Positions 2,659 through 61,793 of a stretch of 64,000 nt of DNA are shown here, piece by piece. The stretch comes from a virus. The number at the start of each line of letters is the position of its first letter. Within the stretch, counting starts at the first letter, position 1. The position numbers were made by a program, and so were the translations under genes. The stretch lies in IMG/VR virus record IMGVR_UViG_3300045988_150084. One strand, written 5' to 3'. The notes under the pieces are model-generated. The model had not been told where the DNA came from. It saw only the letters and a list, made by a program, of their open reading frames with translations, and made no database searches.

Positions 2659-2900
2659 ACTTGCTCCTTTTTCAACGAATCGGAGGTAAAGTAGCAGCCC
2701 CTTATGAAACCGTTCCCAAGTTTTCTCTTCCCCTTGAATCGATACCTGTCTTTGAAATCTGAGGACTCACTCTTTATGTAGCGTACATCAGCAAAATACC
2801 GCTTGAGATTTTCTTCTGCCGCCTTTCTCTCATCCTCTACAACGACAGAATACCTTTCTACCTCATGCGGCATACGCACTACGAAAAAGTGCAGCCCCAT
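2655..2900 (-). CDS. hypothetical protein
   Basis: 81-aa ORF tightly coupled downstream of nrdG. Confidence 0.35.
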   Translation of the reverse strand: MGLHFFVVRMPHEVERYSVVVEDERKAAEENLKRYFADVRYIKSESSDFKDRYRFKGKRKLGNGFIRGCYFTSDSLKKEQV

Positions 2901-3427
2901 CAGCGAATTTTCACTACGTCCTCATTAATCTCGTTACCGTTGTCATCAAAATCGACGTTCTTATAGCTGCCATCATGGAGATGTTTCCAGATTTTCTGGT
3001 TACGGCTCCCACGGAACGGCAGTCTTTCTTTTTGCTTGCAATCAAACGCGCCGTCAATCACATAGTCAAACGGAGAAAAGACGTTAAGTTTACGCTTTTT
3101 GAACAGTTCATCAATGGTGTGGCCTGTGTAGATTGTAGTCTGTAAACCTTTCGACTTCGCCCACGCCGCAATCTCCTTGACCTCATCCATCTGCATAGAG
3201 CTTTCCCCACCGCTGAACGTGACACCACTCACAGGAGGAACATAGCTCTCAATCTTACCCTCAATCTCTTCTACGGACATCTCTACGCCACCGTCTGTTG
3301 ACCATGTAGAAGGATTCTGACACTCTTTACAATGGATGTCACACCCCTGCGCGAACAGGACGTAATTGATACCCTTCCCATCCGCGAGAGACGTGGCATT
3401 TACGCCAGCAACTTTCAACGAATACAA
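2900..3427 (-). CDS. nrdG: anaerobic ribonucleoside-triphosphate reductase activating protein (radical SAM)
   Basis: 175 aa with the CxxxCxxC radical-SAM motif (CDIHCKEC). Immediately downstream of nrdD. Confidence 0.85.
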   Translation of the reverse strand: MYSLKVAGVNATSLADGKGINYVLFAQGCDIHCKECQNPSTWSTDGGVEMSVEEIEGKIESYVPPVSGVTFSGGESSMQMDEVKEIAAWAKSKGLQTTIYTGHTIDELFKKRKLNVFSPFDYVIDGAFDCKQKERLPFRGSRNQKIWKHLHDGSYKNVDFDDNGNEINEDVVKIR

Positions 3428-3469
3428 AACCTCTTTTCAAATAATTTTCGAGCAAATCAGAGATATACA

Positions 3470-5533
3470 TCACAGATTACGCTTTCTTGAATCAAGTTCA
3501 GAGAGTTTTCCGTCGTTCCACCTATTCACGTCTGCAAGGTAGCCTGTGACGATTGCCACTCTCTGTAAATCAGAACTACCGCACCACGGACACTTCATTT
3601 CGTCTCCATCCCACTTATAATGACACTTATGACAGAAATTCATGGCAAAATTGAACCCCATGTAGCCGATTTCTTTCTTCTCCGCTGCATATTGAAGAAT
3701 GTCCAGAAGACCTTCCTTGTTCCATTTTGGGGACTGTCCAACTTCAAGATAAAAGATAGAACCGCCGAGAGCTAAGAGGTGATACTTTCCTTCAATGTCA
3801 ATCTTCTTCTTTGCGTCTACCCCAGCCCATACAGGAATATGACAGCTATTCGTAAAGAAATCATGGTCTGTGACACCCTTGACAACACCGAAACGCTTCT
3901 TGGTCTTATTCATCAAAGTAAAACAAGCATTTTCAGCTGGAGTGGAGAACACGGCATACGCAACGTGATATTTCTGTGTGGCCTTATCCGTCATAGCTTT
4001 CATGTGCTTGATGATTTCAAGGCCGAGTTCCTGAGATTTCTCCGATTCGCCGTGATGTTTTCCAGTAAGAGCAATCAGACACTCAGCAAGACCAATGTAG
4101 CCTACCGAGAGAGAGCCATTTCTGAAACACTTCTCCATGCTATCGTTCTCGTCTTTGAGGTTTTCATGTCCCATATACCACTTAGACGCAAACGGAAAAT
4201 CTTTAGCCTTGAAGGAACACATGATACCGTACCGCTCGTGAAGTTCCCCGATAGCATCGCTTACTGCTTCGTGAAGAATATCCCAGAACTCGGACAGCGG
4301 GTCGGAAGGATTCTTCTCTTTTGCAAGCAGAGCAAGATAGGGAAGATTCACAGTATCAAAAGCAAGGTTGCCACGCGCTTCTGGGGAACTATCTCCGTTG
4401 ATGTTCGTACCGACGTTCGTGCGACATCCCATTCTGGCGCAATTCATCTTGTCTTTATACATATCGCTGTCAGCCAAGACGAAACGCGGCATGATTCTTA
4501 TTCCTACACAATCTAAGGCAAGCATTGTAAGGTCAAAGTTAGGGTCACCTTCGTAAAGATTGATACCCTTTTTCAGTCTAAAGCAGAGAACAGGGAAGAA
4601 CGGCATTTCTCCATTCCCCATACCATCCATGAACGCTTTCAACGTCATTTCAGAAATCATGCGTCCCCAGAAGGAAGTATCTGTACCGAAATTGATAGAA
4701 GAGAACACATTCTGGCCGCCACTGCGAGCCTTTTGAGTATTTGCATTGTATACGAACGCTTGCATGGCTTGGAAAACAGCATCCCTCGTGCGTTTCATGG
4801 CAAGCTCGTAGACCTTTTCGTAATTTACATATCCGTCACCATAGACTTCCTTGATTTGCTTCACTTGCCGCTTGTATTCTCCCTCTGCATACGGCGCGAG
4901 GTCGGTGTCCCAATGTACATATCCTTCGCCGCCGAAGAAATTACTCTGCATGGACTGGAGGATGATACTAGCCAATGCTCCTGCCGTCGTGATATGCTTC
5001 GGAGGTCTTACATACCCTGTACCATTGTCAAATCCCTCTTTCAGCATTTTATAGAGGGGAGAGAAAAAACAGTTTACACTCATGTGCCTATACGGAAGGT
5101 CGTGAATATAGCAGATACCCTTTCGATGATTTTCCGCATACTTCGGATTCATCTTGAGAAGCTCGGTTTCCTTGAGAACATGTTCAGCAACAAAGTGAGC
5201 CTTAGAAGCCATACTATTCTCACTGTTCGCGTTATCTTTGGACGCTTCGAGAAGTAAACCGTCAATACCCTTCACCATATCCGTTTTCCCAAGACGATAA
5301 TCTGTGCGTTTCTGCCGATAGAGGATATACGCCTTGGCAACGTCAGGATATTTCTCCATCAACTTCTTTTCTACCGCATCGTGAATCTCATCCACGGTTA
5401 CGTCCCTATCGAACGAGATTTCACTAGCGATTTCCTTGCCAACTTCTGCGCTCTTAGCGGCTTTCGCCACCGCGTTTTCAATCTTTTCTCTTTTGAACGG
5501 CTCCTTCCGTCCGTCATGCTTCGTTACTGTCAT
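3470..5533 (-). CDS. nrdD: anaerobic ribonucleoside-triphosphate reductase (class III RNR)
   Basis: ATP-cone N-terminus. C-terminal Zn ribbon CHKCHYKWDGDEMKCPWCG and glycyl-radical motif RVAIVTGY. The start is moved to the internal ATG at 5533 (MTVTK), which has an RBS GGAGGAG. The ORF-track start at 5581 has no RBS. Confidence 0.9.
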   Translation of the reverse strand: MTVTKHDGRKEPFKREKIENAVAKAAKSAEVGKEIASEISFDRDVTVDEIHDAVEKKLMEKYPDVAKAYILYRQKRTDYRLGKTDMVKGIDGLLLEASKDNANSENSMASKAHFVAEHVLKETELLKMNPKYAENHRKGICYIHDLPYRHMSVNCFFSPLYKMLKEGFDNGTGYVRPPKHITTAGALASIILQSMQSNFFGGEGYVHWDTDLAPYAEGEYKRQVKQIKEVYGDGYVNYEKVYELAMKRTRDAVFQAMQAFVYNANTQKARSGGQNVFSSINFGTDTSFWGRMISEMTLKAFMDGMGNGEMPFFPVLCFRLKKGINLYEGDPNFDLTMLALDCVGIRIMPRFVLADSDMYKDKMNCARMGCRTNVGTNINGDSSPEARGNLAFDTVNLPYLALLAKEKNPSDPLSEFWDILHEAVSDAIGELHERYGIMCSFKAKDFPFASKWYMGHENLKDENDSMEKCFRNGSLSVGYIGLAECLIALTGKHHGESEKSQELGLEIIKHMKAMTDKATQKYHVAYAVFSTPAENACFTLMNKTKKRFGVVKGVTDHDFFTNSCHIPVWAGVDAKKKIDIEGKYHLLALGGSIFYLEVGQSPKWNKEGLLDILQYAAEKKEIGYMGFNFAMNFCHKCHYKWDGDEMKCPWCGSSDLQRVAIVTGYLADVNRWNDGKLSELDSRKRNL

Positions 5534-5699
5534 TCTTCTCCTCCAAAACCTTATACATACCTCCCGCTCGATAAGCAACAACTACGTTACCCTCGGCATC
5601 CTTGAACAAGTACACATCGCCACAATCGCACCTAGCATACCCATTCTCCATATACTTATCCCACAGTACATCCCAGCACCTTGCACACTTGACTTTCAT
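5514..5699 (-). CDS. small Zn-ribbon protein
   Basis: 61 aa with a CxxC...CxC pattern. Overlaps the corrected nrdD start by about 20 nt. Confidence 0.35.
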   Translation of the reverse strand: MKVKCARCWDVLWDKYMENGYARCDCGDVYLFKDAEGNVVVAYRAGGMYKVLEEKNDSNEA

Positions 5700-9107: not shown

Positions 9108-9183
9108 TGGAGCTACCAGTAAGACTCGAACTTACAACCTTCTGATTACAAGTCAGATGCACTACCAGTTGTGCTATGGTAGC
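9108..9183 (-). tRNA. tRNA-Thr(TGT)
   Basis: Manual cloverleaf: acceptor GCTACCA, D-arm GCAC-AACTGGTA-GTGC, anticodon arm TCTGA-CTTGTAA-TCAGA, T-arm GTAAG-TTCGAGT-CTTAC. CCA is encoded. Confidence 0.8.
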
Positions 9184-9378
9184 ATGTAGCCGTCAACACC
9201 TCTGTGAAGACATCAACGGCATGTGCGGTTAAATTTTATAGAGCGATACCGTCAAGCTCTAGGAGTGCCAACGCCCAGTTTACGGATTCTAGTCACAGCT
9301 ATACCGATGGCTATCTTGTTTTGCACCCAGAAGGAGGTACTGAGTGCTTTATATAAAAGAGTTTCCTCTCTTATAATC

Positions 9379-9466
9379 TGGTGGGTAGGAGTGGATTTGA
9401 ACCACCGAAGACATAAAGCCAGCAGATTTACAGTCTGTCTCCTTTAGCCAACTTGGATACCTACCC
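9379..9466 (-). tRNA. tRNA-Tyr(GTA), type II
   Basis: 85 nt plus encoded CCA. Acceptor GGGTAGG/CCTACCC, T-arm GGTGG-TTCAAAT-CCACT, long variable arm, anticodon loop CTGTAAA. Confidence 0.75.
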
Positions 9467-9467
9467 A

Positions 9468-9542
9468 TGGCGGGGGATGTTGGACTCGAACCAACGATGC
9501 AGGAGTCAAAGTCCTGTGTCTTAACCACTTGACGAATCCCCT
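9468..9542 (-). tRNA. tRNA-Gln(TTG)
   Basis: Anticodon arm CAGGA-CTTTGAC-TCCTG, T-arm GTTGG-TTCGAGT-CCAAC, CCA encoded. Mismatch at the 1:72 pair. Confidence 0.8.
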
Positions 9543-9544
9543 AT

Positions 9545-9620
9545 TGGTGTACCAAGAGCGGCTCGAACGCTCGACCTACGGATTAAAAGTCCGTTGCTCT
9601 AGCCTACTAAGCTATTGGTA
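9545..9620 (-). tRNA. tRNA-Lys(TTT)
   Basis: Acceptor GTACCAA/TTGGTAC, anticodon arm ACGGA-CTTTTAA-TCCGT, T-arm GAGCG-TTCGAGC-CGCTC, CCA encoded. Confidence 0.85.
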
Positions 9621-9625
9621 CATGA

Positions 9626-9712
9626 TGGTGCGAAAGACGGGAATCGAACCCGTACAGTATTTCTACTGGGGGATTTTAAGTCCCCTGCGTCTGCCAGTTA
9701 CGCCACTCTCGC
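9626..9712 (-). tRNA. tRNA-Leu(TAA), type II
   Basis: Anticodon arm GGGGA-CTTAAAA-TCCCC, long variable arm, T-arm ACGGG-TTCGATT-CCCGT, CCA encoded. Confidence 0.8.
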
Positions 9713-15247: not shown

Positions 15248-15835
15248 TTACATACGCCCTTTCTCTAAGCAATCTATTTCCCTATTGAGATACCACGCAG
15301 CTTTTCGGAGGTCTTGTAAGCTGTCGGCGGTCTTGTGCCCGGCGCGGGCGATGTACTTGACTACGTTGCCGAGGTTAAAGCCGAGTCCCCATGCTTCGAT
15401 GGCGTCGATAGCTTCAACACCGCCTGTCTTGTAATACGATGGATGATTAACGGCTTCACGTTTCTCGATATGTTCAAGCTGCTCTTGTGCATACGTCGGA
15501 GCATCATCAGAGCCATGATTATCTTTTATTCCTGCTTCGTGTTTCCACATATCCTCAAGTGCAAATCTACAACCTATTGTACCCGGATTGCACCCGCACG
15601 AGTTCTTACACCTGCATTTACCGCAATTAGTCTTAGTCCTTACAAAATCACGCGCCGCATAAGAGAGCGCCTGTTTGTATCTCGTGACCATCTGCTTTTC
15701 TTTTTTCGTATTCATTAGCTCTTCTTTCTCTTTAAGGTCTGCAAGCTGCTCCTGCGCGTATGTCGGAGCGTCAATGATGCAATCTTCTGCATCAATTTCA
15801 TTTCCGTTTGTGTCGTAATGTACTGTTCTGCTCAT
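15248..15835 (-). CDS. DUF3310-family phage protein
   Basis: C-terminal HPSYYKTGGVEAIDAIEAWGLGFNLGNVVKYIARAGHK...DLRKAAWYL matches the DUF3310 signature. Cys cluster CGKCRCKNSCGC. Internal duplicated DAPTYAQEQL. Confidence 0.6.
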   Translation of the reverse strand: MSRTVHYDTNGNEIDAEDCIIDAPTYAQEQLADLKEKEELMNTKKEKQMVTRYKQALSYAARDFVRTKTNCGKCRCKNSCGCNPGTIGCRFALEDMWKHEAGIKDNHGSDDAPTYAQEQLEHIEKREAVNHPSYYKTGGVEAIDAIEAWGLGFNLGNVVKYIARAGHKTADSLQDLRKAAWYLNREIDCLEKGRM

Positions 15836-20247: not shown

Positions 20248-20961
20248 TTATTTACGAGGGAACTTGAAATCAAGCACCTTGGCCGCAGCCTCCTTGAGAA
20301 CTGGGTCATTGCTGTTGAACTTCATCCACGTCAGAGACTTCATAGAAACCTCGGACAACTTTTTACCGTTGTTCATACTGCCGTCACTCACCACCATATC
20401 GAGGAGCTTCTGGATTTCCTCAGGTGCATTTGCCGTATCGACAGGCTTCTGATATGTGCTGCTTGAGCCGTAGGACTGCCGCTTGTCATACTCTACCTTG
20501 GCTTCGAGATTGCCACTACGCTCGTTCTCTGGGAGCGCCCAATCGGGGAGAGTAATCTTACCGTAGAAGCGTCCATTATGCAGGTCAACGCGCGGAGAAT
20601 CAAGCTCATAGAGGTAGCGACCAATACCGAGCTGTGCCGCGGCACGCTTGAGAGCACCAGAGATAGCACCCTTGAGAGGAGAAGCCTGTTCCGTGAACTC
20701 AGCTCCGTCCGACTTGATGATAGTCTTGCCGCCGAACTCACACGCCAGAGTGCAGATAACACCCTTAGAGCAAGTCTCAAAACTGTCTTTCCAGCCCTCT
20801 ACGCCGAAGACCTCATCGAGACGGTTCTGGATGCCACGTGCCGAGACATAGGCAAGCATCGTGCCGCTCTGACGGTCTTTGAAGGTACTACCTACACGCC
20901 ACTCAATCTCTTTGCTGGAAAACGGTGCGCGGAGCAGTTCAGCTACATTTTTTTCTGCCAT
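20248..20961 (-). CDS. Rad52/22-family single-strand annealing protein
   Basis: Conserved ISGALKRAAAQLGIGRYLY motif. Start reassigned to MAEKN, which is preceded by RBS GGAGGA. Confidence 0.7.
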   Translation of the reverse strand: MAEKNVAELLRAPFSSKEIEWRVGSTFKDRQSGTMLAYVSARGIQNRLDEVFGVEGWKDSFETCSKGVICTLACEFGGKTIIKSDGAEFTEQASPLKGAISGALKRAAAQLGIGRYLYELDSPRVDLHNGRFYGKITLPDWALPENERSGNLEAKVEYDKRQSYGSSSTYQKPVDTANAPEEIQKLLDMVVSDGSMNNGKKLSEVSMKSLTWMKFNSNDPVLKEAAAKVLDFKFPRK

Positions 20962-21136
20962 TTTGTTCTTCCTCCATCTTGAACTGAATATTAACCTTTG
21001 GCACATAGCGAGTACCGTGAGAATCAACGGCGTAAATCCTGATTGGAATACCGTGTTTTATACAGTTTTTGCAATAAGCTGTTGCTTCGTTTACTTCGTC
21101 CGTGAGCACTCCAAATTCTTCGTGGATAAACGTCAT
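20939..21136 (-). CDS. small hypothetical protein (contains the protospacer for CRISPR spacer 2)
   Basis: 65-aa ORF. Nucleotides 21054-21093 are the exact reverse complement of array spacer 2. Confidence 0.35.
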   Translation of the reverse strand: MTFIHEEFGVLTDEVNEATAYCKNCIKHGIPIRIYAVDSHGTRYVPKVNIQFKMEEEQNGRKKCS

Positions 21137-21284
21137 TCTTACGACCTCCTATGTGATAATACCAGTATAGCAGAGTTAGAGCTTTACGTCAATAAAAAAT
21201 TCATTTACCCAGTAATACTTTTCGGCAGACGTTCTCGTGGTAAATCAATAATAGCACTTTGTTCGATTAGTGTCAATCTTAACT

Positions 21285-22061
21285 TTACTTAGAAAGACGC
21301 TTTGCGAGACGTACAGCGAGAGCAGGGTTTGTCTTAGAGAGACTACGCATAAAGTCAGAATCGATAGCTTTTTTTGAAGAGACGATAGGCTTCACATCGA
21401 CGGCATAGACAACGGCATGGTTTCTAGCAGGTTTCCCAATATCCTTCTTAGCTTTTTTGCCGAGTTGCCAGTTGTTTTTAAGAGCAGCGAAAAAGTAGGC
21501 AATAGGATTCTTGACAGAGAGGGAGCTATTGAGAAGGGCGAGCTTTTCTTCAACGTAGTTTACGCCAAGCTCTTTCATCTCCTCGAAGGAGCACGGCTTA
21601 TTGCCAGCCAGCTTGCGTCCGTATTCCAGAACTTTCGTTGCGTAGAGGACGGGGGAAATACCGAGGGCAGCAGCTTTCTGTCCAACGGCGGCATGGTGGC
21701 TAGTCTCAGTCTCCTTCTCAACATCGTTATTATTTGTTTTAACTATTCTAGTTTGTTCTTTGCGATTCGTAGCCATAGGGCATGTCATGGGCTTCTCGAG
21801 GATGCGGACATAGCGGCCAAGCACCATTTTAGGGATTTTGGGAGAGTACATGAGCTTGACGGCAACAAGACCAGCGCGGCGAAGGTCGGTAATGATATGA
21901 CTGATACGCGACATGGATTTACCCATCATCTCTGCAAGGCTTCGATTGTTCGCCCAGCATGAACCTGTTTTTGCGGAAAGATATTCAATTCTCTCGAACA
22001 GCAATACATGTGTGGATGTCATTTTGATACCGTTAATAGTGTCGTTCGGTTTGAACTTCAT
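21285..22061 (-). CDS. putative replication-initiation/replisome-organiser protein (N-terminal winged HTH)
   Basis: 258 aa. N-terminal HTH-like region (SLAEMMGKSMSRISHIITDLRRAGLV). Adjacent to the DnaA-box region and the primase-helicase module. Confidence 0.5.
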   Translation of the reverse strand: MKFKPNDTINGIKMTSTHVLLFERIEYLSAKTGSCWANNRSLAEMMGKSMSRISHIITDLRRAGLVAVKLMYSPKIPKMVLGRYVRILEKPMTCPMATNRKEQTRIVKTNNNDVEKETETSHHAAVGQKAAALGISPVLYATKVLEYGRKLAGNKPCSFEEMKELGVNYVEEKLALLNSSLSVKNPIAYFFAALKNNWQLGKKAKKDIGKPARNHAVVYAVDVKPIVSSKKAIDSDFMRSLSKTNPALAVRLAKRLSK

Positions 22062-22529: not shown

Positions 22530-22572
22530 GTGAGCGTAGATGATTTTTGCTTATCGAGAAGGAGGAATTGCC

Positions 22573-23484
22573 ATGATTTCTATCGACGTAGGATTCGGTA
22601 ACACTAAGGTGTATGACGGCGAAACCTTAAACGTGTTCCCCTCTATCTATTACCGCGCCAAGGCAGCCGAAGCCGTGAACGACCCAAGAGATATGCTCCT
22701 TGAACTTGACGGTGAAAGGTATCATGTTGGTATCACAGCCCTGCATAAAGGTGGGGAGTCACAGATGGAGCGTCACAACCTCCTCCGTCACAAGCTCTTC
22801 ATTCTCTCTGCGATTTGCGCTACAACGAGAGGGGATTTCTCCGATAAGGTTCTTCTTGGTCTTCCGATTAGCGACATGGAGACGATGAAGGAATCTGTTG
22901 AAGGATTGAAAGGCGTATACCACGTTATTTTCAACGGAGAGACGCGAGAAATCAACATCACGGCTATTAAGGTATATCCCCAGTCAGAAGCCGTATACAA
23001 CCTCCTAGAGCGTCAGGACGAGAATATCAGAGACAAGGCAATCGGTATCATCGACGTGGGACAGAAAACAGTTGACCTCGCCTACTACAACTACGGCACG
23101 CTTGATGATGATAGGTGCGGTAGTCTCACAAAACTCGGTTGCAAGTCGGCATACCTTGACATCCAGAAAGCGCTTAATCGTGTCTGCGACATCGATACTG
23201 AGTGGTATCTGGTATCTAAGTTCTTGAACCGCGAAGCAATAGAAGAAGATAAGAATCGTGCGTTTGAGGACATGGCGCGTAAGATTCTGAGCGCAACCAG
23301 TAATCTTGGATGGAACTACCATGAACTCGATGCAGTATACCTTATCGGCGGCGGTAGTTCTTATGTTGAGCCGTTTGTAAAAGAGCATGTAAAGGTTCTT
23401 ACTGGAGAGAGCGAAAAAGTTATTATTCCGTCTAACCCAGTATTCGCGAATGTGAGGAGTTACTACGAGGGGGAATTGAAATGA
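22573..23484 (+). CDS. parM: actin-like ATPase ParM/StbA-family segregation protein
   Basis: Phosphate-1 motif ISIDVGFGNTK and GIIDVGQKTVDL, C-terminal YLIGGGS. Start reassigned to the ATG at 22573, which has RBS AGGAGG. Confidence 0.8.
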   Translation: MISIDVGFGNTKVYDGETLNVFPSIYYRAKAAEAVNDPRDMLLELDGERYHVGITALHKGGESQMERHNLLRHKLFILSAICATTRGDFSDKVLLGLPISDMETMKESVEGLKGVYHVIFNGETREINITAIKVYPQSEAVYNLLERQDENIRDKAIGIIDVGQKTVDLAYYNYGTLDDDRCGSLTKLGCKSAYLDIQKALNRVCDIDTEWYLVSKFLNREAIEEDKNRAFEDMARKILSATSNLGWNYHELDAVYLIGGGSSYVEPFVKEHVKVLTGESEKVIIPSNPVFANVRSYYEGELK

Positions 23485-23894
23485 GCAAGAGAGTCTCAGT
23501 AGTATTTCCTGGGCTTATCGGGGACTATGTGGAAAAACGCATGAACCAGCTCGGTCTTACTCCTAGTCAGTTCCTTCATATCATGGTTATCAGGGACTTA
23601 ATCAGACCGTTGACCATTGAAGAAGCTGGCATCTTGAGCATCGGCGTAGGTCGTATGAAGTCAGGCGGCAGTGCGGAACAGGTTATCGCTGGACTTGCCC
23701 CACTATTCGAGAGAGAAGGTTACTCCAAAAAACAGGAAGAGGAAGAACCTTTAGGAGACGATGACGTAAAGAAAGTGGTTAGCGACATCCTCTCCGAGCC
23801 AATCCCAGAACCGCCAAAGGTAGAAGAGCCAAAACAGACCGTAGAGAAACACCAAGACGAGCCTAAGATGGGGAATATGACAGGCTACATCTGA
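23481..23894 (+). CDS. parR: ParR-like DNA-binding adaptor (putative RHH N-terminus, acidic C-terminus)
   Basis: 137 aa, translationally coupled to parM. N-terminal basic and hydrophobic region. C-terminal E/D-rich tail. Confidence 0.5.
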   Translation: MSKRVSVVFPGLIGDYVEKRMNQLGLTPSQFLHIMVIRDLIRPLTIEEAGILSIGVGRMKSGGSAEQVIAGLAPLFEREGYSKKQEEEEPLGDDDVKKVVSDILSEPIPEPPKVEEPKQTVEKHQDEPKMGNMTGYI

Positions 23895-24614: not shown

Positions 24615-27600
24615 TTAAATAATACTCCTAAATTTGTTGCCAACAACAGACATCCGATAGATTTTATTCGTCTCGATTGGTACATAAACACTATTGAACA
24701 TTACCATATCGTGCTGAGTTCCATCGGGACATTCCAGAGTAAAGAACATCATAGGCTTACCGTTTTTCTGTTTCCAATGTTTGATACGTCGCACAACACC
24801 GAGAACAATACGGACACGTTTGTCTTGCTCATCGGGAGCCTGATATTTACTTGTATCATAATCAGCGAAAATATCTTCAAAGGTCATGCCGAGCACTTCC
24901 AGCTCTCCAGCCTTGTAATCATAGTCTTCGTCGGTATTCTTAACCTCTTTGATTTTCTGTTCGATGTCCCAATACTTAGAGCTGTAATCAAGATACTTCT
25001 TATGAGCTTCTTTCTTCTTCTTCGTACCGTCTTTCGCTGTCTCATAGATAGCCTTATTCTTCTCGATTCGCTCTTTCACGGTAGAAAGCTGTCTGTTCAG
25101 CTTGTCAAGCGTGCCGCTCTGGTATACATCCTGCAAGAGTTCACTCCTGTCACCGAGGAAGTCAAGTGCTCCTGCTTTGATAAGATTTTCTACCTTGTCC
25201 TTTGGGAGTTTCTTATAGCTCTGATAGTCAAGAGGAACAGGAATATCGCCAATGCCAGAGATATAGTTAATAGCCATTCTGATAGTTTTATCGTCAACCA
25301 CTTCCCAATCACAGGTATGTGAACGCGCATCGGGAGGGAGAATCTTGATACCGTGCCGACGAGCGTCATTGACATATACTAGAAGGTCTTCCTGTTTGTC
25401 TCCGTTGTAGGCGTTGAGATAGGCACAAAGGAACTCAGCAGGGTAATGAGCCTTGAGGTATGCCGTCTGATAGCAAGTATAGCCGTAAGCCGCGCTGTGC
25501 GATTTGTTGAACTGATACGCCGCCGCATTGGACAACCATTCTGCCAACTTTTGAGCGACATCTTGACTTACACCACGTTTCTCGCAATCATTCACAAACT
25601 GAGGGACAAGTTTAGCCATCTCCTCTGGAATCTTCCTACCGATAGCACGACGAAACACATCTGCTTGACCAAGGTCATACCCTGCCATAGCCTGTACAAT
25701 CTGCATAGCCTGTTCCTGATAAAGCATGACACCATAGGTATCTTTCAAGCAATCCTCTACCCAAGGATGGATGTATGTAAACGGCTGTCCTTTTCTCCGA
25801 TTCGTAAACTCATCAACCATGCCGCTCTGAATAGTGCTAGGACGATACAATGCCACCAACGGAACAATATCGAACACATTTTGAGGTTTGATGTCTTGAA
25901 TGATTTTCCGCATACCACCAGACTCAATCTGAAAACATCCGAGAACATCATCATGGTTCAGCATATCGAAGGTAGCCGTATCTGTGTCAGGAAGGTTGTC
26001 TACGTCCACAGACGCGCCGTAACGTGCCTCCACCATCTTACAGGTGTTATCTATCACGTCAAGCGTTTTAATGCCCAGAACGTCCTCTTTGAGTAGTCCC
26101 ATGGCTTCGAGGTCGTGATACTCATAGGCACACACATAGTCTTCTCCCTGTTTCTCAATAGCACACCACTCCGTAGGGTCACTAGAAAAAAGCATGACAG
26201 CACTTGCATGACAGCCATAGTTTTGAATAATGCCAACATACTTCATCGCAAGGTCTTTCAAACGCTCATCGGTCTGTTCTTCAATGGTCTTAGGAAGATT
26301 GCGAATCGCAGAAGGTTCATAGCCAAGACTTCTAGCCGCTCTTTGAATTGCCGCACGCTCCCCCATCAGTCCAAAAGTGCGAACGTGATATACCTCGTGA
26401 TACTTGTCTACAAGATATTGGATAGCATCGCCGCGCCTACTGTTGGGAACATCCGTGTCAATATCTGCGCTCGAACTTCTTTTGTCGTGTGCAAACCTTT
26501 CAAAGATAAGCCCGTACTTGATAGGGTCAATGCGAGTAATGTCCATGAGGTAAGCAACAAGACAGCCACCGACACTACCACGTCCGATACCCGTCCTGAT
26601 ACCGAGGTTGTGACATCCTCTTACAAAGTCCTCTGTCATAAGCATGTAGTTCGTATAGTCAATCTTATCGAGAACCTTGATTTCATGGTCAATCTGCGCT
26701 TTGTACTTGGGATATTCTGACTCAGGAACATGACCGACAATCTTCTTTTTGAACCCATCCGCTACTAGCTTGCACATCTGAGAGAGGGGCGTTTCGCCGT
26801 CAGGAACTTCAAAGACAGGATAATGTTTTTCTCCAAAAGGAATCTCTACCTGCTCACACTTGTCCGCTACACGCTCAGTTTCCTCGATTAGCTCATCAGC
26901 AATAGTGCCGTCAAGGTAGCTCAGAGCATCGCGTGCTTGCTGTTCGGAATGGATATAGTAATCGTCAGTCTGATAGTAAGTGCTGTCTTCGTCGATACCG
27001 AGCCATTTCCTATGTGTGTCCGCTTCATCTTTGTTGACATAGTGAGAGTCCTCAGTAACATAAGCAGAGATACCTAAGTCCGTGGCGAGGTCAAGCATGT
27101 TCTGGTTATACTTCTTTTGCTCTTCATCTGTACCGAGCTGCAATTCAACATAAAAATCCTCACCAAAAACATCTTGGAAGGTCTTAGCACGGTCATAGGC
27201 AAGGTCATAGTCCCACTCGTCACCGTTTCGCGGATTGAGAAGACCACCCATGCAAGCAGAGGAAATAATCAGACCTTCTTTATGAGCGATAATATCCTCG
27301 GTAGTGAGCCGCATTGTGTAGAAGAAATTATCAGGTTTATTTCCCTTGTCACCATATCCAATCGTTGCTAATCGGAGAAGATTATGATAGCCTGTCTCGT
27401 TCTTAGCAAGTAAGATAATATGGCAACTAGCCTTTCTGTCTTTGACGTAATAGTTAGGAACCCAGTACCCCTCCATACCAAAGATAAACTTGATAGATGT
27501 ACCGTGCTCCTTGTTGTACTTCTTTGTCTCTTTGTACGCCTCCATAAGACCGCTCGTCGTGCCGTGGTCTGTCAGCGCCCAAGCAGTTTGTCCAAGCTCT

Positions 27601-27683
27601 CCGATTCGAGAAACCATCTCTGGAATTTTAGCAATGGCATCTCTCTTTGAGTAATGACTGTGCCTATGTAACCCTACGAACAT
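24615..27683 (-). CDS. dnaE: DNA polymerase III alpha subunit (DnaE-type, PHP domain)
   Basis: 1022 aa. N-terminal PHP motif GLHRHSHYS...LTDHGT. Pol III alpha core-like sequence throughout. Confidence 0.85.
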   Translation of the reverse strand: MFVGLHRHSHYSKRDAIAKIPEMVSRIGELGQTAWALTDHGTTSGLMEAYKETKKYNKEHGTSIKFIFGMEGYWVPNYYVKDRKASCHIILLAKNETGYHNLLRLATIGYGDKGNKPDNFFYTMRLTTEDIIAHKEGLIISSACMGGLLNPRNGDEWDYDLAYDRAKTFQDVFGEDFYVELQLGTDEEQKKYNQNMLDLATDLGISAYVTEDSHYVNKDEADTHRKWLGIDEDSTYYQTDDYYIHSEQQARDALSYLDGTIADELIEETERVADKCEQVEIPFGEKHYPVFEVPDGETPLSQMCKLVADGFKKKIVGHVPESEYPKYKAQIDHEIKVLDKIDYTNYMLMTEDFVRGCHNLGIRTGIGRGSVGGCLVAYLMDITRIDPIKYGLIFERFAHDKRSSSADIDTDVPNSRRGDAIQYLVDKYHEVYHVRTFGLMGERAAIQRAARSLGYEPSAIRNLPKTIEEQTDERLKDLAMKYVGIIQNYGCHASAVMLFSSDPTEWCAIEKQGEDYVCAYEYHDLEAMGLLKEDVLGIKTLDVIDNTCKMVEARYGASVDVDNLPDTDTATFDMLNHDDVLGCFQIESGGMRKIIQDIKPQNVFDIVPLVALYRPSTIQSGMVDEFTNRRKGQPFTYIHPWVEDCLKDTYGVMLYQEQAMQIVQAMAGYDLGQADVFRRAIGRKIPEEMAKLVPQFVNDCEKRGVSQDVAQKLAEWLSNAAAYQFNKSHSAAYGYTCYQTAYLKAHYPAEFLCAYLNAYNGDKQEDLLVYVNDARRHGIKILPPDARSHTCDWEVVDDKTIRMAINYISGIGDIPVPLDYQSYKKLPKDKVENLIKAGALDFLGDRSELLQDVYQSGTLDKLNRQLSTVKERIEKNKAIYETAKDGTKKKKEAHKKYLDYSSKYWDIEQKIKEVKNTDEDYDYKAGELEVLGMTFEDIFADYDTSKYQAPDEQDKRVRIVLGVVRRIKHWKQKNGKPMMFFTLECPDGTQHDMVMFNSVYVPIETNKIYRMSVVGNKFRSII

Positions 27684-36031: not shown

Positions 36032-39012
36032 TATTTATCAATCTCCTTTTTCACAAGAGTTTTTACTCCGTCTTCAATAAGAAATTCTGAATTATTATCA
36101 AGAGTTACCGAATCGAGAAGATTTATACTTCGTATCTCAGTCCCTTTTCCTTCGCTTGCGTCTGTGTCTACTGTAAATTTATATGGAGAAGCGAAACAAT
36201 AGTCATTACCAGAACGAATACTAAGAGAAAGGCTCTGCTTGGTTGCCTTAAACGTAATCTTCGTCTCGTATGTCACAGCATGATAGTCACCGCTTATCTC
36301 ATAGAACGTCGCGCCGATTGCTTCATCCCAAGAAAGGGTAACGTATTCTCCAGACATACTCTGCCGTACAAAGGCAACAGGGTTAGGCATTAACGACATC
36401 GTGAACGTCTTTGTAGTGCTTGCCGAATTGCCAGCTTGGTCATAAGCCGTGATAACGACCGTATTAATACCATCTACGCCAATACCTGTGTATCGAGTGT
36501 TGGTTGTGTGTTCGAGCTTGTCGCGGTATTTGACCGTGTATTCCTTGAAGTCTCCCTCCGTATTCTTATCCCATGTAAGACTGAACTTTGCGCCATCTTT
36601 TGTGAGAATGACGTTCTGTGGTGTGGCTGGAGGACTGTCCGTGAGGTGAAGAGTAACCGTACCTGTCTCAATCGCTTTAGAGTACAGACCGCTCTCATTT
36701 CTGACGATAACGCGGAACGCTACATTTGCATCCTGTTTTTCTTCGGCCTCATAGGAACAAACATTTGTATCTGTGAGAAGCTCCCATTCCCCATCTGGAT
36801 ATTTACGATAGAGAGAATAATACACCCCGATTTGTGTAGGAGAAGCTCCCCACGTTACTTTTGCTTTTAGCTTTGTGATAGGCGTATCGAGAATATCATC
36901 AAGAACCGTAACTCTGATACCGTCAGCTGGCAATGGCGTGCCAAGAACAGGCTTATTAAGAGAATAGTTAGGCATTGTGATTGTCGCACCGAGCGTATCG
37001 TTGTAGATAGTCGGATTGTACTGTCTTCCCTTAATGGTATATTCGCCGTCTTCTGTCTCTTGAATCTCCGTAATTCTAAAGGGCATTTCTACGAAAATAT
37101 CCTTATAGGTAATGGAAACAACATCGGACGGTTCGAGGTGTGCAGCTTGATAGCCAGTCTTGAACTCTACTTGAAGAGTACACGTTCTGTTGTAGTCTCG
37201 ATAGAAACGACCAAGACGAAGAGCTTGAGCCTGAGAAGTAACGCCCTCCAGTTCAACCTCTTTTGTAATAATCTTGTGCCGTTGTCGTTGGTCACCATAA
37301 TCATCAACAATAGCGGTTGCCGTTTGCCAGTTATTGAGAGGGTCGATAAACTTGATTTGATATTGGTTCGGACACTCATCGAGGGAAATCTGTGAGATAG
37401 AGAAATCCTTGATAGAACTGTCCGTGAACTTGTAGGATATATCAGTCTGTCTCTCGATTCGCAGATGAAGTTTATTCTTAGACAGGACAAGATAGCCGCA
37501 GAAAGAAGCCATGATATTTTGAATCCAGTCCCACATAGATTGCTGATTGTCCATGACAAGGTTCAATTCATATCTCTTGCCTGTAAGAACTGTTCCGTCA
37601 GCCATCTTGTAGGAGACTTCCGCGTCGCACCAGTCAGCCGCTTCTTTGAAACTATCCTCGTCGATATTTTCCTCTGTCAGCCAAAGACCGCCGCCGTATG
37701 TCTTGTTGAGAAGCAAGTCCCTGAGACACATAGCAGGATTTGTTGAATATACCCATTGATTAGTTCGCGTATCATATACCTTGCGTCCTTTTACAAGTGC
37801 TTCGATAGACGGATTTCCGTTTAGCTCACTACATACAGAAAAAGTAAGGTCTAGCCATGCCATATTAGGATAGCCGCCGACCGTTTCATAGTTCTCAGGT
37901 GTGTCTCCGTCGTGATACGTCATTTTAGTCTGTCCTGCAATCGTAGAAGCAACGGCTGGAACAGGCTTGCGGTAGCACGGAGAGGGCTTGCTGTTCACTA
38001 CATATCGGTCAAATGTACAATACCATGCCTTACGTTTTCGCATGTGATGCCAATGAGATTCGCTGTGTCTAGTGTTAGGGACAGAGAGGAGAACCATACC
38101 GTCTCTATAAGCCCTAATGTCCCAATCATCGCCGCCATCCTTGCGTAGTTCCGCGCGTCCCTTGAAGGTTAAGTCACCAATGAGGATGTCTCCTGCACTT
38201 CGAGAGGTATTAGCAACAGGGAACGCCTCCCATCCGTCCTGCAATCTATTGATATACGAGATGAGGGAAGACACTTCCATCTGCCAAGACCAATAACTTG
38301 CGTCCGAGCTTTGTGTATCGTCCTGATTTTTTAAGTCTAACTTTTTGAGGTTTCCGTTCCAGTACAGTTGAAGCTGTTTTCCGTCCATCTGTACCCATGC
38401 GTCCTCGAATCGTCTGTTCTGCACATAGAAGATAGTCCTGCTCTGAATATCATCTTTACTCGATGAGTCGGGGATGTTGTAAGAAGCAGCCGTGACGTTT
38501 TCGACACCTTCAATACCACCCTCGCAGAGAACAACATGCTTATGAAGTGTATTTGCATCTGCGTCTGTTTCGTGAAGCGTCTGATTGCCAGTTACTTTTC
38601 TTCTACCATAGACAACTGGGATAACACCGCCGAGAGACTGAGTTTCCTGTTCGCGGTCAAACCTCATTACACTTACGTTGCTATTCGATTGTCCTTGCTG
38701 ACCACCAAAAGCCGTCCAAATCGAGGAGAAAAGAGAAGCCCCCATGATACCAGCCGCAAGGGAAACGCCGTGAGCCGCTTGTAAGCCAAACATAGCAGGA
38801 TTGCAGAAGCCAACCGCAAAACCAACGACGGATAAAGCAACCTTACCAGCGTCCTTACCTCCACCGCCTTTACCGAATCGTTGAAGGTCAAACTTGAACG
38901 CTTTAGAGGAAAATTTCAGAAATTCGTCACCGTAAACCTCATCGCTCAAGGCATTGCGGGACGTGATAAATCTATCCTTCATTGTTCCCTCCTTAGTGAT
39001 AATTAGCTTCAA
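36031..39012 (-). CDS. central tail fibre / host-specificity (lambda J-like) protein
   Basis: 993 aa, immediately distal to the distal-tail genes. Contains FN3-like repeats (GTVTLHLTDSPPATPQNVILTK...). Confidence 0.55.
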   Translation of the reverse strand: MKLIITKEGTMKDRFITSRNALSDEVYGDEFLKFSSKAFKFDLQRFGKGGGGKDAGKVALSVVGFAVGFCNPAMFGLQAAHGVSLAAGIMGASLFSSIWTAFGGQQGQSNSNVSVMRFDREQETQSLGGVIPVVYGRRKVTGNQTLHETDADANTLHKHVVLCEGGIEGVENVTAASYNIPDSSSKDDIQSRTIFYVQNRRFEDAWVQMDGKQLQLYWNGNLKKLDLKNQDDTQSSDASYWSWQMEVSSLISYINRLQDGWEAFPVANTSRSAGDILIGDLTFKGRAELRKDGGDDWDIRAYRDGMVLLSVPNTRHSESHWHHMRKRKAWYCTFDRYVVNSKPSPCYRKPVPAVASTIAGQTKMTYHDGDTPENYETVGGYPNMAWLDLTFSVCSELNGNPSIEALVKGRKVYDTRTNQWVYSTNPAMCLRDLLLNKTYGGGLWLTEENIDEDSFKEAADWCDAEVSYKMADGTVLTGKRYELNLVMDNQQSMWDWIQNIMASFCGYLVLSKNKLHLRIERQTDISYKFTDSSIKDFSISQISLDECPNQYQIKFIDPLNNWQTATAIVDDYGDQRQRHKIITKEVELEGVTSQAQALRLGRFYRDYNRTCTLQVEFKTGYQAAHLEPSDVVSITYKDIFVEMPFRITEIQETEDGEYTIKGRQYNPTIYNDTLGATITMPNYSLNKPVLGTPLPADGIRVTVLDDILDTPITKLKAKVTWGASPTQIGVYYSLYRKYPDGEWELLTDTNVCSYEAEEKQDANVAFRVIVRNESGLYSKAIETGTVTLHLTDSPPATPQNVILTKDGAKFSLTWDKNTEGDFKEYTVKYRDKLEHTTNTRYTGIGVDGINTVVITAYDQAGNSASTTKTFTMSLMPNPVAFVRQSMSGEYVTLSWDEAIGATFYEISGDYHAVTYETKITFKATKQSLSLSIRSGNDYCFASPYKFTVDTDASEGKGTEIRSINLLDSVTLDNNSEFLIEDGVKTLVKKEIDK

Positions 39013-41209: not shown

Positions 41210-44200
41210 TTATCTGAAACCGTGACGCTGTTGATTGCCCATGATTCTCTGGAAAGCACGCGGGTTCTTTTGAATTGCTCTCATAACACTTGCACTATCT
41301 GCTTGCGTATTGAGAACAACCATATTCCCAGAACCGTTATCTTTACTCCCCATAGCGGCTAACATATCGTTCTGTTGTTGCATAAGCTGTTCCAGACGTT
41401 TGTTGCTGCTTGTCTTAATCACGGTGTTATTACGGTTGAACTTGCGGTAATTCTCCACAGTTTTAGGACTCATAACAGGCTCATAGGACTCACCAAGGTC
41501 ACCGCCGTCCGCGTATCGCTTCATACCAGCAATAGCTTCTGGATTGGCATTGAGCGTATCGAGGAAGGAAACTCCGACCTTATCCACCGTGGATTTCTTG
41601 ATGATATACTCACCATTGGATGTGCGGATAAACTGCCCTCGATTAGCAAGGTAGGTAAGAATGGAATCACTTGTACCTGTTCCTGCTCCTCCGATAAGAC
41701 CTGTTGTGTCACCGCCAGTAGCGAACTTAGGAATCAATCCACCAGCAGCCATTGGGAAGAAATTCCTTGTCATCATCGTCCCATTCAAGGTCATAACCGA
41801 ACCAGACAAAATATCCATGACCGAAGTATTTGCTGTTGTTGTAGCCGTTCCTGTAACCTTTGCGCTAGTGTCTAATGCCGTTTTAGCCGTGCCGAGGATT
41901 GTCTCTTTTGTGAGAAGTCTAGTTGCATTTGACATGGCATTTGTGACTGCTGAAGCACCCTTAACAGTAGTAGAATTGATTGCCAGCTTTTGTCCGAGGT
42001 CTGAGAACGCTTTTGTATAGTCTGCCTTACCGCCGAATTGGTTTGTTGCACCGTATCGAGAGGAAGGAATCCTATCCATGACGTTTCCGCTCCAGCCGCT
42101 CATAAAGCCGCCTACTCTGCCGATATTGTTGACAAAGTTTCTCCTCTGCACCCTTCTCGTGATGTTCTCACCGCTAAGAATGTCCTTGAGTCCCCATTTC
42201 TGCATCTGAACCTTGAGGATTTGTTGGAGAGCGAGCTTTGCAATATCACTCCAGAGTGCTTTCCACGACTCTTTGAACGACTTTCCTTCGAGCAGCACAT
42301 CGGAGAATATAGAATGGACACCATTTTCGATGATGTCGGCAAGTTGGTCTGTCACAGCATTAAGAGATTTCTTTACATCGTCAATGGATTTCTGAACCTC
42401 TGTCAAGTCCTTCTTATATTGCTGTGTAGCTTCGCCGCCGTGTTCGCGGTTTTGGTCAATCCTATCGGTAAGTTCATCTACATGCTTAGAAACCTTTTGA
42501 ATCTCGGCATTGAGTGTCTTATCTTCGCTTGTGAGGGTCTTGCGTTTCTCGATAAGCAAATCAAGGCGTTTCTGTTCGGCATCACGTTCTGTCTCCCAGC
42601 CGCTACGCTTCTCGTAGTCGCTTGACTCTGCCTTAGATAACTGAGAATGAATCCAGTCGTATTTCTTTTGCAGGATGTCAAGTTTCTGTGCATAGAACCG
42701 CATATTCTCCATATAGGACTCATTGTCGGTCATGCCGTTTACTTTGTACTCGTGTGCGTTGGAAAGACTCTCAAGCTGTGCGTCCAGACGTTCCGTAGGA
42801 GACATAGAGCCATAAACCTTACGGTCGCGCTCCGCTTTGTCTTCTACATACTTCGATTCGAGGGAATCTAGTTGACTACGAGACTTGATGATAGAGTTAA
42901 TAGCCTTGGTGAAATCACCCTTGCCCTCTTTATCAAACTTCTTCGCAATCTCTTGAATCTCAGAATCTGGAAGTGTCTTGATACCTTCGATGGACAGATT
43001 ATTCTCACTCAGGAAACCCTTGAAGCCACTGAACTTATCGGAATAGTCCTTGAGGAAGTCTTCGCCGTTCTGTTGGATTGCTCTCCAGTAACTAAGCGTA
43101 GTCTCCGTAGACTTGAGTTTAGCTTCTTCGTTCTCGGCAATCTTCTTATAGATTTCAGCCGTATAGCCACTCAGTTTAGCTTCGGTTTCAAGGCGTTTCT
43201 GTTCCCTCTCATAGCGCTTCTGGTCAGTCTCGTACCGATAAGCAGCTTCTTCGATACCGTTTCTATGGAACGCATTTTCACCACGGTATTTCTCCCAACG
43301 GTCAACAGACTCGCTCGAACTAATCGAAGGAGAGCCATATTTAACACCGTTAGCTTGAGCAAGTTCTTTGATGTCTACACGACCGAGAACAGCTCCGAAA
43401 TACTGTTGCGCTTCTTCCATTGTTCCATGATGAACGCCGCCGCTACTGTTCCGTGCGATATACCCACCGTTGCCGTCATAGATACCTACATGCTTATTCC
43501 AGTTGATGATGTCACCAGCATTGAGAGGAGCTTCACCAGCGTGATATGCACTTCCTGCCTGTTCCATAAGCGTGTCGCCGTTCGGACTATTGACAGATGT
43601 GATACCGTGCTTGTTCATCATGTAGGAAACCCAAGACGAACATTGACTCTCCCATGTAGAGTTATCATCAAAACCTGCATCTATGCCGCGCCATTGTTCG
43701 CCAGCATGAGCGTCAGCTTCTTTGACCATGGCTTCACCGATGTTCTCGCCAATGGTTTGTGTTGCCGTGTTCCAACCAGACTCATTAGCGTATTGGTCAA
43801 TAGAACGAGAGTAATTATATCCATCTTCGTCCTCGGGCCAAGCATTAGTGTGACCGACATTATACCAATCCGTAGCGGTTTTAGCGTCATCGTAGCGCAT
43901 ACCGTTATAAGCGTCACCGCGAATGTATGTCTTAGCTAATTCATCGATGAGGTCTGCCTCGTCTTTGAAACTTCCCATATAGCCGCCGATGTGAGCGTTT
44001 GTAGTAAACTCAGTAACGTTAGGAGTTTCAGACATAAATTGGCCATACATCATATTAGGAGTGATATAGCGGCCTGTTGTGTCTTGGATTTCTTTCGACA
44101 CCCTTACCGCAAGTTCAGCAAGATATGGATTTGTGAAGGAACTGTAATCATACCCACCAGCATTAAGCCGAGAACCTTCCGTCATGCGATGTTCATCGTT

Positions 44201-61342: not shown

Positions 61343-61645
61343 TCAGATGGTGATTTTAAGTCGATACAGAGACGGGACTCCCCTCTGGCGCGATGGTGCA
61401 TATTCAATCATTCCCTTCTCGATTAGTTCCCTTCTTGCTCTATGAATCGTTTTTCTGGCCATTCCAGTATCTTGAACCGCTAGGCGGTCTGTGTAACAGA
61501 ACTCTCCTTCTCTGCCCTTCCAAGACAAAATGAGAAACAGTTTCAATGCCGATGGCGAGGTTTCCTTGATTCTCTTGATAAATTCGTAGTTCACTTCTTC
61601 CTCCTGTGATTCTTCTTCCTGATTCGCGACCATTTCAGCCGACAT
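61343..61645 (-). CDS. winged-HTH DNA-binding protein
   Basis: 100 aa. Acidic N-terminus. HTH-like segment MARKTIHRARRELIEKGMIEY. Confidence 0.45.
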   Translation of the reverse strand: MSAEMVANQEEESQEEEVNYEFIKRIKETSPSALKLFLILSWKGREGEFCYTDRLAVQDTGMARKTIHRARRELIEKGMIEYAPSRQRGVPSLYRLKITI

Positions 61646-61776: not shown

Positions 61777-61793
61777 GGCGTAAAAATTCCCCC

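Follow-up and report, generated by a model that had tools for sequence, protein, structure and literature searches.

The stretch of DNA analysed here, hereafter the window, comprises 64,000 nucleotides (nt) of a virus genome deposited as IMG/VR record IMGVR_UViG_3300045988_150084. Close to its right end, at 63279-63463, lies a CRISPR mini-array. It consists of three identical 35-nt repeats and two 40-nt spacers (R1 63279-63313, S1 63314-63353, R2 63354-63388, S2 63389-63428, and R3 63429-63463), and spacer S2 matches the window itself at 21054-21093. On the plus strand the repeat reads GTTTCCGTCCCCTTACGGGGATTTTGTTTTTCAAC; on the minus strand, which is the sense of the CRISPR RNA (crRNA) as argued below, it reads GTTGAAAAACAAAATCCCCGTAAGGGGACGGAAAC. 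The plus-strand sequence at 21054-21093 (TGTTTTATACAGTTTTTGCAATAAGCTGTTGCTTCGTTTA) is the exact reverse complement of S2 (TAAACGAAGCAACAGCTTATTGCAAAAACTGTATAAAACA). All 40 of 40 positions agree, the match is bounded exactly by the spacer ends, with the adjoining base on either side differing from the repeat, and no such match appeared in 100 shuffles of the sequence. This site is a true protospacer of S2. As an original prediction made from the sequence alone had stated, it lies on the minus strand, which is the sense (mRNA) strand, within an open reading frame (ORF) of 65 amino acids (aa; 20939-21136, minus strand) between a Rad52/Erf-like gene (20248-20961) and a replication-initiator-like gene (21285-22061). 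The flanks had been read correctly, too: in spacer orientation, GACGAAG precedes the protospacer and CGGTATTC, which begins with CGG, follows it.

The 65-aa ORF is the first gene of an early operon that continues with the Rad52/Erf gene, a gene for a protein of 117-130 aa, the primase-helicase, and an exonuclease. A GGAGG Shine-Dalgarno sequence is located 8 nt upstream of its ATG, and directly upstream of the gene two strong sigma-70-like promoter matches are found at 21164-21276 on the minus strand, TTGACA-17-TATTAT (11/12, with TG) and TTGACG-17-TATACT (10/12, with TG), both being consensus matches only. The gene is also called in independent assemblies. It has no assigned function: Pfam and PHROGs searches returned no family, and a Foldseek search of the PDB with an AlphaFold2 model (pLDDT 72) gave nothing better than E = 0.8. 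The protein family consists of only 26 clusters, with some members in phi29-like podophages. BLAST comparisons of the target region and of the array region with GenBank phages yielded no match, and IMG/VR scans for the repeat and for relatives of the Rad52/Erf protein found nothing.

Spacer S1 also has a target in the window, which the original prediction did not mention. It matches 63938-63977 (plus strand) at 39 of 40 positions on the same strand, 585 base pairs (bp) from the array, and the single C-to-T difference converts one pair into a G:U wobble at crRNA position 15. This protospacer lies in a 62-aa ORF (63842-64000, plus strand) that extends 30 nt past the end of the window and is an early gene of a rightward operon. 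The ORF is complete in the overlapping contig L029 (10258-10446), and Pfam and PHROGs searches assigned it to no family.

The window is almost entirely phage DNA. It encodes a large terminase, a portal, a major capsid protein, a tail tube, and a tape measure protein of 2909 aa (41210-49939), together with a DnaE-type polymerase (24615-27683), the primase-helicase, Rad52/Erf, the exonuclease, NrdD/NrdG (2900-5581), PhoH, and five tRNAs (9108-9712). Temperate features are a ParM/ParR-like pair (22540-23894), a tyrosine recombinase (579-1460), and a CI-like regulator. An independent assembly (L009/L029) is 100% identical to both window ends and joins them via 3731 bp of small plus-strand ORFs. 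The genome thus measures about 67.7 kilobases (kb) and is circular or circularly permuted. Related contigs measure 67.7-73.8 kb; one source contig, at 100.5 kb about 1.5 times the genome length, suggests that the assembly was concatemeric. The genome is probably a phage-plasmid, and its carrier is a phage of gut Selenomonadaceae. No cas genes were found in the approximately 67.7-kb genome, and neither a ring nuclease nor a known anti-CRISPR domain was found among 10 small early ORFs. Because phage genes lie on both sides of the array and cas genes are absent, the array is phage-borne and not a host array beside a prophage. The original prediction had pictured the protospacer as a target inside a resident prophage. 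This setting has to be given up, and a host array next to an integrated prophage is ruled out, as array and target reside on one and the same circular phage genome.

The array occupies a non-coding region between the minus-strand structural module and the rightward operon of small early genes. The complete arrangement of three repeats and two spacers recurs in identical context in four further samples (L030-L033), and a variant with two repeats and only S2 is present in L009, whereas none of 15 further loci from other relatives that share the terminase or neighbouring proteins contains an array. The array flanks show no similarity to host leaders or trailers. Consensus scans, the only kind of promoter search applied, detected no sigma-70-like site in crRNA sense for at least 2 kb upstream of the array. 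Since cas genes, a host-like leader, and a crRNA-sense promoter are all missing in cis, the element is an orphan mini-array. A terminator-like hairpin specific to this lineage is located 62 nt beyond R1 in crRNA sense (63201-63217, minus strand). An Rfam search of 61500-64000 gave only sub-threshold matches to CRISPR direct-repeat (CRISPR-DR) models and assigned the GC-rich leader that surrounds the array to no structured RNA family. On the plus strand, each repeat forms a GUCCCC/GGGGAU hairpin (6-bp stem, -9.6 kcal/mol) followed by UUUGUUUUU and resembles a weak intrinsic terminator, so that three terminator-like units stand in tandem (63279-63463) between a putative early promoter and the early genes.

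The type of CRISPR system was deduced from host loci. Exact searches for the repeat core retrieved host arrays from metagenome-assembled genomes of Selenomonas or Selenomonadaceae (L001/L003, L004) and from metagenome contigs (L019-L024). The phage repeat is identical at 35 of 35 positions to those of the L001/L003, L021, L022, and L062 arrays, and the matching loci are long host arrays. In L001, the array adjoins cas1, cas2, cas10/csm1, csm2, csm3, and csm4. L021 contains a complete cas1-cas2-cas10-csm2-csm3-csm4-csm5-cas6-csm6 locus between two arrays with the same repeat, and L062, a Selenomonas-type contig, shows the order cas10-cas2-cas1-array-leader. The host Cas and Csm proteins exceeded the curated cut-offs of NCBIfam (equivalog) or Pfam models, with the exception of Cas6, which scored 55.6 bits against a cut-off of 58.65 bits. 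As the repeat is identical to those of arrays beside csm genes, it is a type III-A (Csm) repeat, and the phage mini-array uses the type III-A repeat of its host. Spacer lengths are 35-42 nt in the host arrays and 40 nt in the phage. Hosts that have the identical repeat and perfectly matching spacers (L001, L021, L062) show a G+C content of 63%, about 19 points above that of the window (44%); other carriers of the repeat (L002, L004, L019) range from 42 to 49%.

The orientation of the array follows from four observations. In the host arrays, which are co-directional with the cas genes, the degenerate terminal repeat adjoins cas1 and the leader is at the far end. The best Rfam CRISPR-DR match for the mini-array is on the minus strand (35 bits, below the gathering threshold). 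The minus-strand repeat folds into a UCCCC-GUAA-GGGGA hairpin (-9.8 kcal/mol) that is followed by CGGAAAC and thus ends 7 nt from the repeat 3' end. Finally, host spacers matching this phage family lie on the sense strand of the genes in 9 of 11 cases at the nucleotide level and in about 30 of 31 at the peptide level, as do S1 and S2. For the peptide-level comparison, ORFs were called and translated across the host arrays, giving 43 ORFs and 247 inter-repeat peptides, about 30 of which match the phage family. Because leader position, Rfam strand, repeat hairpin, and host-spacer orientation agree, the crRNA strand of the mini-array is the minus strand of the window. Judged from the fold, predicted processing by Cas6 would leave an 8-nt tag, ACGGAAAC, which we take to be identical to the type III-A tag of Streptococcus thermophilus. 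Among 139 host spacers (L001, L003, L004, L019-L024), a Shine-Dalgarno motif followed by ATG occurs 16 times on the GTTTCC (sense) strand and once on the other, which speaks for the same orientation. This excess, by a rough estimate about threefold over random phage 40-mers, suggests an enrichment for translation starts or transcript 5' ends.

These results change the meaning of the protospacer flanks. The AAG preceding the S2 protospacer had been likened to a protospacer adjacent motif (PAM) of type I systems such as I-E. Type III systems recognise RNA and do not use a PAM, and the crRNA 3' end is trimmed in these systems; moreover, I-E repeats are shorter than 35 nt. When the flanks were compared with those of other protospacers of arrays with this repeat, no PAM emerged: no motif recurs on either side of eight protospacers (those of six host spacers, of S1, and of S2), and the trinucleotides at the end of the 5' flank read GTA, ATA, CAC, TAA, ACG, and AAG. 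The AAG is without significance, because no flank motif exists across the eight protospacers and because it is on the side that pairs with the trimmed crRNA 3' end. A type I PAM, of I-E or another subtype, is ruled out by this lack of a motif together with the csm genes, in place of cascade or cas3, beside the arrays with the same repeat. The related argument that a PAM incompatible with the AAG and CGG flanks would explain a tolerated match does not apply, since the system uses no PAM.

Self and non-self are distinguished in type III systems by pairing of the 8-nt crRNA tag with the 3' flank of the target RNA, an established principle attributed to Marraffini and Sontheimer (in 2010). The informative 3' flank of the S2 protospacer (CGGTATTC) agrees with the anti-tag GTTTCCGT at only one of eight positions. 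At the RNA level, the target 3' flanks of S2 (CGGUAUUC) and S1 (UCAUGGUG) likewise each agree with a perfect anti-tag (GUUUCCGU) at one of eight positions. A minus-strand crRNA is antisense to both target mRNAs, as the 65-aa ORF is encoded on the minus and the 62-aa ORF on the plus strand. A crRNA made from the minus strand of the array would carry the tag ACGGAAAC and a spacer, and with S2 it would form a duplex with the 65-aa ORF mRNA; a flank that does not pair with the tag would then license Cas10. Given the antisense orientation and the non-pairing flanks, both sites should in principle be competent for type III-A targeting. The G:U wobble at S1 position 15 would not be expected to block recognition, and type III-A systems are indeed said to tolerate mismatches (a result ascribed to Pyenson et al. 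in 2017). Hence, of the proposal that the S2 site is a fully competent target in a prophage, the part that stands is that a cognate effector could recognise it; the type I rationale and the prophage setting do not.

Both targets were compared among related phages. Two array-less genomes from one sample, L014 and L026, are 99.2-99.9% identical to the window and are matched perfectly by S1 and S2. All array-bearing genomes carry the T in their own S1 target, whereas the array-less L014 matches S1 at 40 of 40 positions. The S2 site is identical in every sampled member of the sublineage (L017, L018, L025, L026). In relatives of about 91% identity, S1 meets 8-10 mismatches and S2 10-12. A hint of escape comes from two relatives, L034 and L035, which differ from S2 at 10-12 of 40 positions (3044-3083 in both). 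In these two genomes, 10-12 of the 18-19 differences across the 198-nt ORF fall inside the 40-nt protospacer, and the remainder of the ORF differs by about 5%. Five synonymous changes affect six invariant codons (YCKNCI) of the protospacer, which is the most divergent coding 40-nt window within 2.2 kb in this comparison. The divergence may represent multi-mismatch escape from type III targeting, as judged from the sequences of two relatives.

Homologues of the 65-aa ORF product, 55 aa long and 75-85% identical at the amino acid level (about 86% at the nucleotide level), are encoded by phi29-like podophages of about 12 kb, which also code for Phi29_MCP, a connector, a Gp16 ATPase, and a protein-primed PolB. 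There the gene follows directly after the capsid gene (3001-3168 in L044-L049, 1501-1668 in L060/L061). The S2 site of L060/L061 matches at 37 of 40 positions, with a single mismatch within crRNA positions 1-35. Thus, a small gene is common to two unrelated phage groups, which presumably infect the same host.

The surroundings of the array are themselves heavily targeted by host spacers. A promoter-like site, TTGATA-18-AAAAAT (63021-63050, plus strand), is a candidate start of a rightward early leader transcript, within which the array lies in antisense. This GC-rich non-coding leader (63021-63600 in the window, 5500-6500 in L010-L016) is a mosaic among relatives and contains at least eight distinct protospacers in about 450 nt. 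Most host-spacer matches fall into the leader and the early genes behind it, the others into the genes for the replication initiator, ParM, and primase. Spacers of the hosts that pair with plus-strand RNA have their matches on both sides of the array position and, in relatives, just downstream of the equivalent of 63021-63050; those on either side of the array point to a rightward transcript that starts near 63021-63050. The host contig L062 and several of the phage contigs stem from one cohort. Spacers of L062 match the window at 63473-63509 (37/37) and 38921-38961 (41/41), and at least three others are directed against this leader as it occurs in L014-type phages. The 38921-38961 match belongs to the oldest L062 spacer and is on the antisense strand of a 993-aa tail-region gene, an orientation that would not function in RNA targeting.

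Several array-less relatives (L014 6175-6209, L010 6336-6370, and L056) carry in this leader a solitary 35-mer, GTCGATAAACACAAAGCCCGACCGGGGACGAAAAC, that resembles the type III-A repeat (25-26 of 35 positions identical without gaps, compared with a maximum of 23 of 35 in 300 shuffles). It is found on the minus strand of these loci, which corresponds to the plus sense of the window, about 100 nt from the array site (window equivalent approximately 63190-63230) and in opposite orientation to the array, so that its repeat sense is contained in the early leader RNA. Its hairpin is weak (-4.6 kcal/mol), and Rfam returned nothing for the unit in L014. Judged from its sequence, it may be a solitary repeat unit or an RNA anti-CRISPR. 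A degenerate repeat in the same orientation at the array site of relatives was also considered and dismissed, as alignment scores did not exceed those of shuffled controls.

The junctions of the array with this leader provide the best clue to its origin. Alignment of the hotspot with relatives showed that the 185-nt array is not a simple insertion but replaces about 125 nt of the leader. At both ends, a complete repeat directly abuts phage sequence. The left flank (63239-63278, plus strand; ...TTCATATTGCAGGGGG) is homologous to the protospacers that spacers L003_174 and L062_4288 match in relatives; both are cut short by the array here, and the junction is about 3 nt from the end of the L003_174 homology. 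Phage sequence also makes up the right flank (ACGCTCGTCGGGAATAG...). The array-less L053 and L055 read ACGTTCGTCGGGAAAAG there, and the stretch ACGCTCGTC of the window is homologous to ACGTTCGTC in these two. Nine nt to the right of R3 begins the perfect protospacer of L062_4069 (63473-63509, plus strand). In the replaced segment lay the L021_1184 protospacer and half of the L062_4288 protospacer. Colinear with the sense orientation of host spacers, the array is therefore antisense to the leader transcript.

The reading we favour, held tentatively and at somewhat less than even confidence, is that the array stems from a host array, a fragment of which was captured by recombination between spacers and protospacers, and that it is probably poorly expressed. 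The donor would have been a host array of the form R-[A]-R-S1-R-S2-R-[B]-R with spacers derived from this phage lineage. Guided by the homology of spacers A and B to protospacers in the leader, a double crossover or a gene conversion would then have replaced about 125 nt of the heavily targeted early leader precisely with the R-S1-R-S2-R fragment. Such a capture accounts for the complete repeats at the junctions, the replacement, the orientation, and the missing leader. It also explains why both spacers match only the sublineage of the carrier, because they would be the host's own spacers against that lineage. Little or no crRNA is probably made, since the array is antisense within the leader transcript and lacks a promoter-like site in crRNA sense; for the same reason the phage copy would tolerate matching its own genome. 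Any benefit to the phage would lie in losing the replaced protospacers. Recombination of phages with CRISPR loci through spacers and protospacers is documented, at least as summarised in PMC8616872 (Varble et al., 2019, Nat Microbiol 4:956), and recombination with host arrays has been proposed as the origin of leaderless phage mini-arrays (PMC6858448).

Some observations weigh against a captured and largely silent array. A search of low sensitivity through about 400 host spacers (161 nucleotide spacers and the 247 inter-repeat peptides from the 43 array ORFs) revealed no donor with the order A-S1-S2-B, nor indeed S1 or S2 in any context. The closeness of the junctions to protospacers (3-9 nt) is statistically weak, because the leader is so densely covered by host protospacers. 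As the promoter scans relied on consensus sequences only, a weak or non-canonical promoter could drive crRNA synthesis. All repeats are intact, the array persists in at least five samples, and the terminator-like hairpin is specific to the lineage, which would also fit a functional transcription unit. That both spacers are in functional orientation is expected whether the array was captured or is at work.

The main alternative is an array that does work, though this is on the unlikely side. The crRNAs of S1 and S2 would be loaded by the host Csm complex and exclude sibling phages as well as phi29-like podophages that share the targets. In the lysogenic or plasmid state, with its early operons silent, the carrier would be spared, because interference needs transcription of the target. 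Type III-A immunity is reported to tolerate temperate phages in just this manner (work attributed to Goldberg et al. in 2014), so that a perfect target in a lytic gene coexists with the spacer while it is untranscribed; there, however, the spacer was in a host array, and here it is on the phage itself. The ParM/ParR-like pair, the tyrosine recombinase, and the CI-like regulator would permit such conditional tolerance. Cas6 and Csm6 are encoded by the host, both targets are in 5'-proximal early genes, and the terminator-like hairpin follows the array on the minus strand. Array-less siblings (L014/L026) are matched perfectly by both spacers, the S1 target of the carrier has changed in every array-bearing genome, and a podophage with 37 of 40 matching positions (L060/L061) is a plausible competitor. 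Two spacers, repeats identical to those of the host, the lack of cas genes, and a target in an adjacent gene are also the features of the known class of virus-borne mini-arrays (PMC6858448, PMC8616872). However, spacers of published mini-arrays typically have no match to the carrier genome (PMC8616872), whereas here S2 is perfect and the change in S1 is only a G:U wobble, so that the phage would target itself upon induction. Neither a promoter-like site in crRNA sense, over at least 2 kb, nor a host-like leader was found, the heterotypic relatives escape the spacers with 8-12 mismatches, and near-identical siblings would already be excluded by repressor immunity. It is highly improbable, in turn, that array and perfect S2 target were joined by chimeric assembly of different co-occurring strains. 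Array-bearing and array-less strains of 99.2-99.9% identity do exist in the same cohort, and the independent array-bearing contig L009 stops short of position 21054, but every sampled sublineage member (L017, L018, L025, L026) has the identical S2 site and the array context recurs in five independent assemblies. A PAM-dependent, type I-like recognition of the AAG-flanked site by a host array facing a resident prophage has next to nothing left in its favour beyond the AAG itself, which does precede the protospacer in spacer orientation; the repeat is of type III-A, the eight protospacer flanks have no motif in common, and the array is internal to the phage genome.

The plus strand of the array invites a different thought, which we consider improbable. 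The phage may have captured exactly those host spacers that threaten it and kept them in antisense in its earliest transcript as a spacer-specific RNA anti-CRISPR, a kind not yet described. The leader RNA would then bear S1- and S2-sense RNAs together with the anti-tag GUUUCCGU and bind the host crRNA-protein complexes without activating Cas10; alternatively or in addition, the repeats would terminate the leader and so conceal the protospacers downstream. Host spacers pairing with plus-strand RNA do flank the array position on both sides, each plus-strand repeat is terminator-like (6-bp stem, -9.6 kcal/mol, then UUUGUUUUU), the spacers are exactly those threatening this lineage, and relatives hold the solitary repeat-like 35-mer in the same hotspot. 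If true, counter-defence of this kind would explain why the targets of phage mini-arrays tend to lie near the array. Yet its two versions conflict, since terminators would stop the synthesis of decoys, and the downstream early genes still require expression. A few productive encounters suffice to trigger signalling by cyclic oligoadenylates, so that a decoy would be needed in vast excess, and a literature search for anti-tag decoys found no precedent. Still more doubtful is a role in self-regulation, in which host Csm with phage crRNAs would silence leaky early transcripts or abort cells that start the lytic cycle, and so lock lysogeny. The spacers match the first genes of the carrier's two divergent early operons, in both cases in antisense-crRNA orientation, as such a role would have it; however, activation of type III immunity triggers the Cas10 DNase and the collateral RNase activity of Csm6, which would harm the phage. 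Besides, close relatives manage without the array, a variant with S2 only exists, and a crRNA-sense promoter is missing.

The mini-array can be set beside several known systems. The virus-borne mini-arrays of the portogloboviruses SPV1 and SPV2 and the phage and prophage arrays described by Faure et al. (2019) are alike in having one or two spacers, repeats identical to those of the host, no cas genes, and a viral location. In the published cases, as for S1 here, the target is in an adjacent gene, perfect in a close relative, and altered by a point change in the carrier (PMC6858448; PMC8616872). The present array differs from them in being of type III-A and not type I, in that S2 matches the carrier at 40 of 40 positions and the S1 change amounts only to a wobble, in lacking a leader or promoter in crRNA sense, and in the replacement of a homologous segment between two protospacer sites used by the host. 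Leaderless phage mini-arrays are known, and both their origin and the nearness of their targets to the array have been left unexplained (PMC6858448). The type III-A systems of Staphylococcus epidermidis and S. thermophilus resemble the one considered here in the 35-36-nt repeat ending with GGGGACGGAAAC, the hairpin and 8-nt tag, spacers of 35-42 nt, the complete csm locus (here that of the host), and strand-biased spacers. In contrast to these, the array here is parted from the cas genes and located on a phage.

Homology between spacer and target is reported to have moved CRISPR DNA into phage in a staphylococcal type III-A system (Varble et al., 2019; see also Watson et al., 2018), according to the summary in PMC8616872. 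The products there were transducing particles with CRISPR-cas loci, whereas here a stable, viable phage would have acquired a 185-nt fragment by double crossover. RNA anti-CRISPRs and solitary repeat units (Camara-Wilpert et al., 2023) are repeat mimics in non-coding phage regions (PMC10651486; PMC11656645), to which the 35-mers of L014, L010, and L056 are similar. The window, in contrast, has three full repeats and two spacers in opposite orientation to the solitary unit of the relatives. The mini-array is therefore not a solitary-repeat RNA anti-CRISPR, the solitary 35-mer being confined to L014, L010, and L056.

Phage mini-arrays, the targeting rules of type III-A systems, and spacer-mediated recombination were each known before. 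What is new is their combination in a mini-array of type III-A that a phage of gut Selenomonadaceae carries, with spacers that match the carrier and junctions that point to capture from a host array. It offers a natural example, its context being unusually complete, in which the type III-A loci of the host, dozens of host spacers against the same phage family, and sibling phages with and without the array can be viewed together. It is also a rare case of a phage-borne spacer that matches its carrier perfectly, and in type III systems little escape is gained by a point mutation. Should the array be expressed, a phage or phage-plasmid lives with a programmed, transcription-dependent self-targeting. 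If it is silent, recombination with host arrays would be a route by which phages delete targeted sequence.

Host spacers also drew attention to a gene elsewhere in the window. The host spacer peptide DAPTYAQEQL (P0049) matches twice, at 15505 and 15772, within a single ORF of 195 aa (15248-15835, minus strand). Thus, this gene contains an internal duplication.

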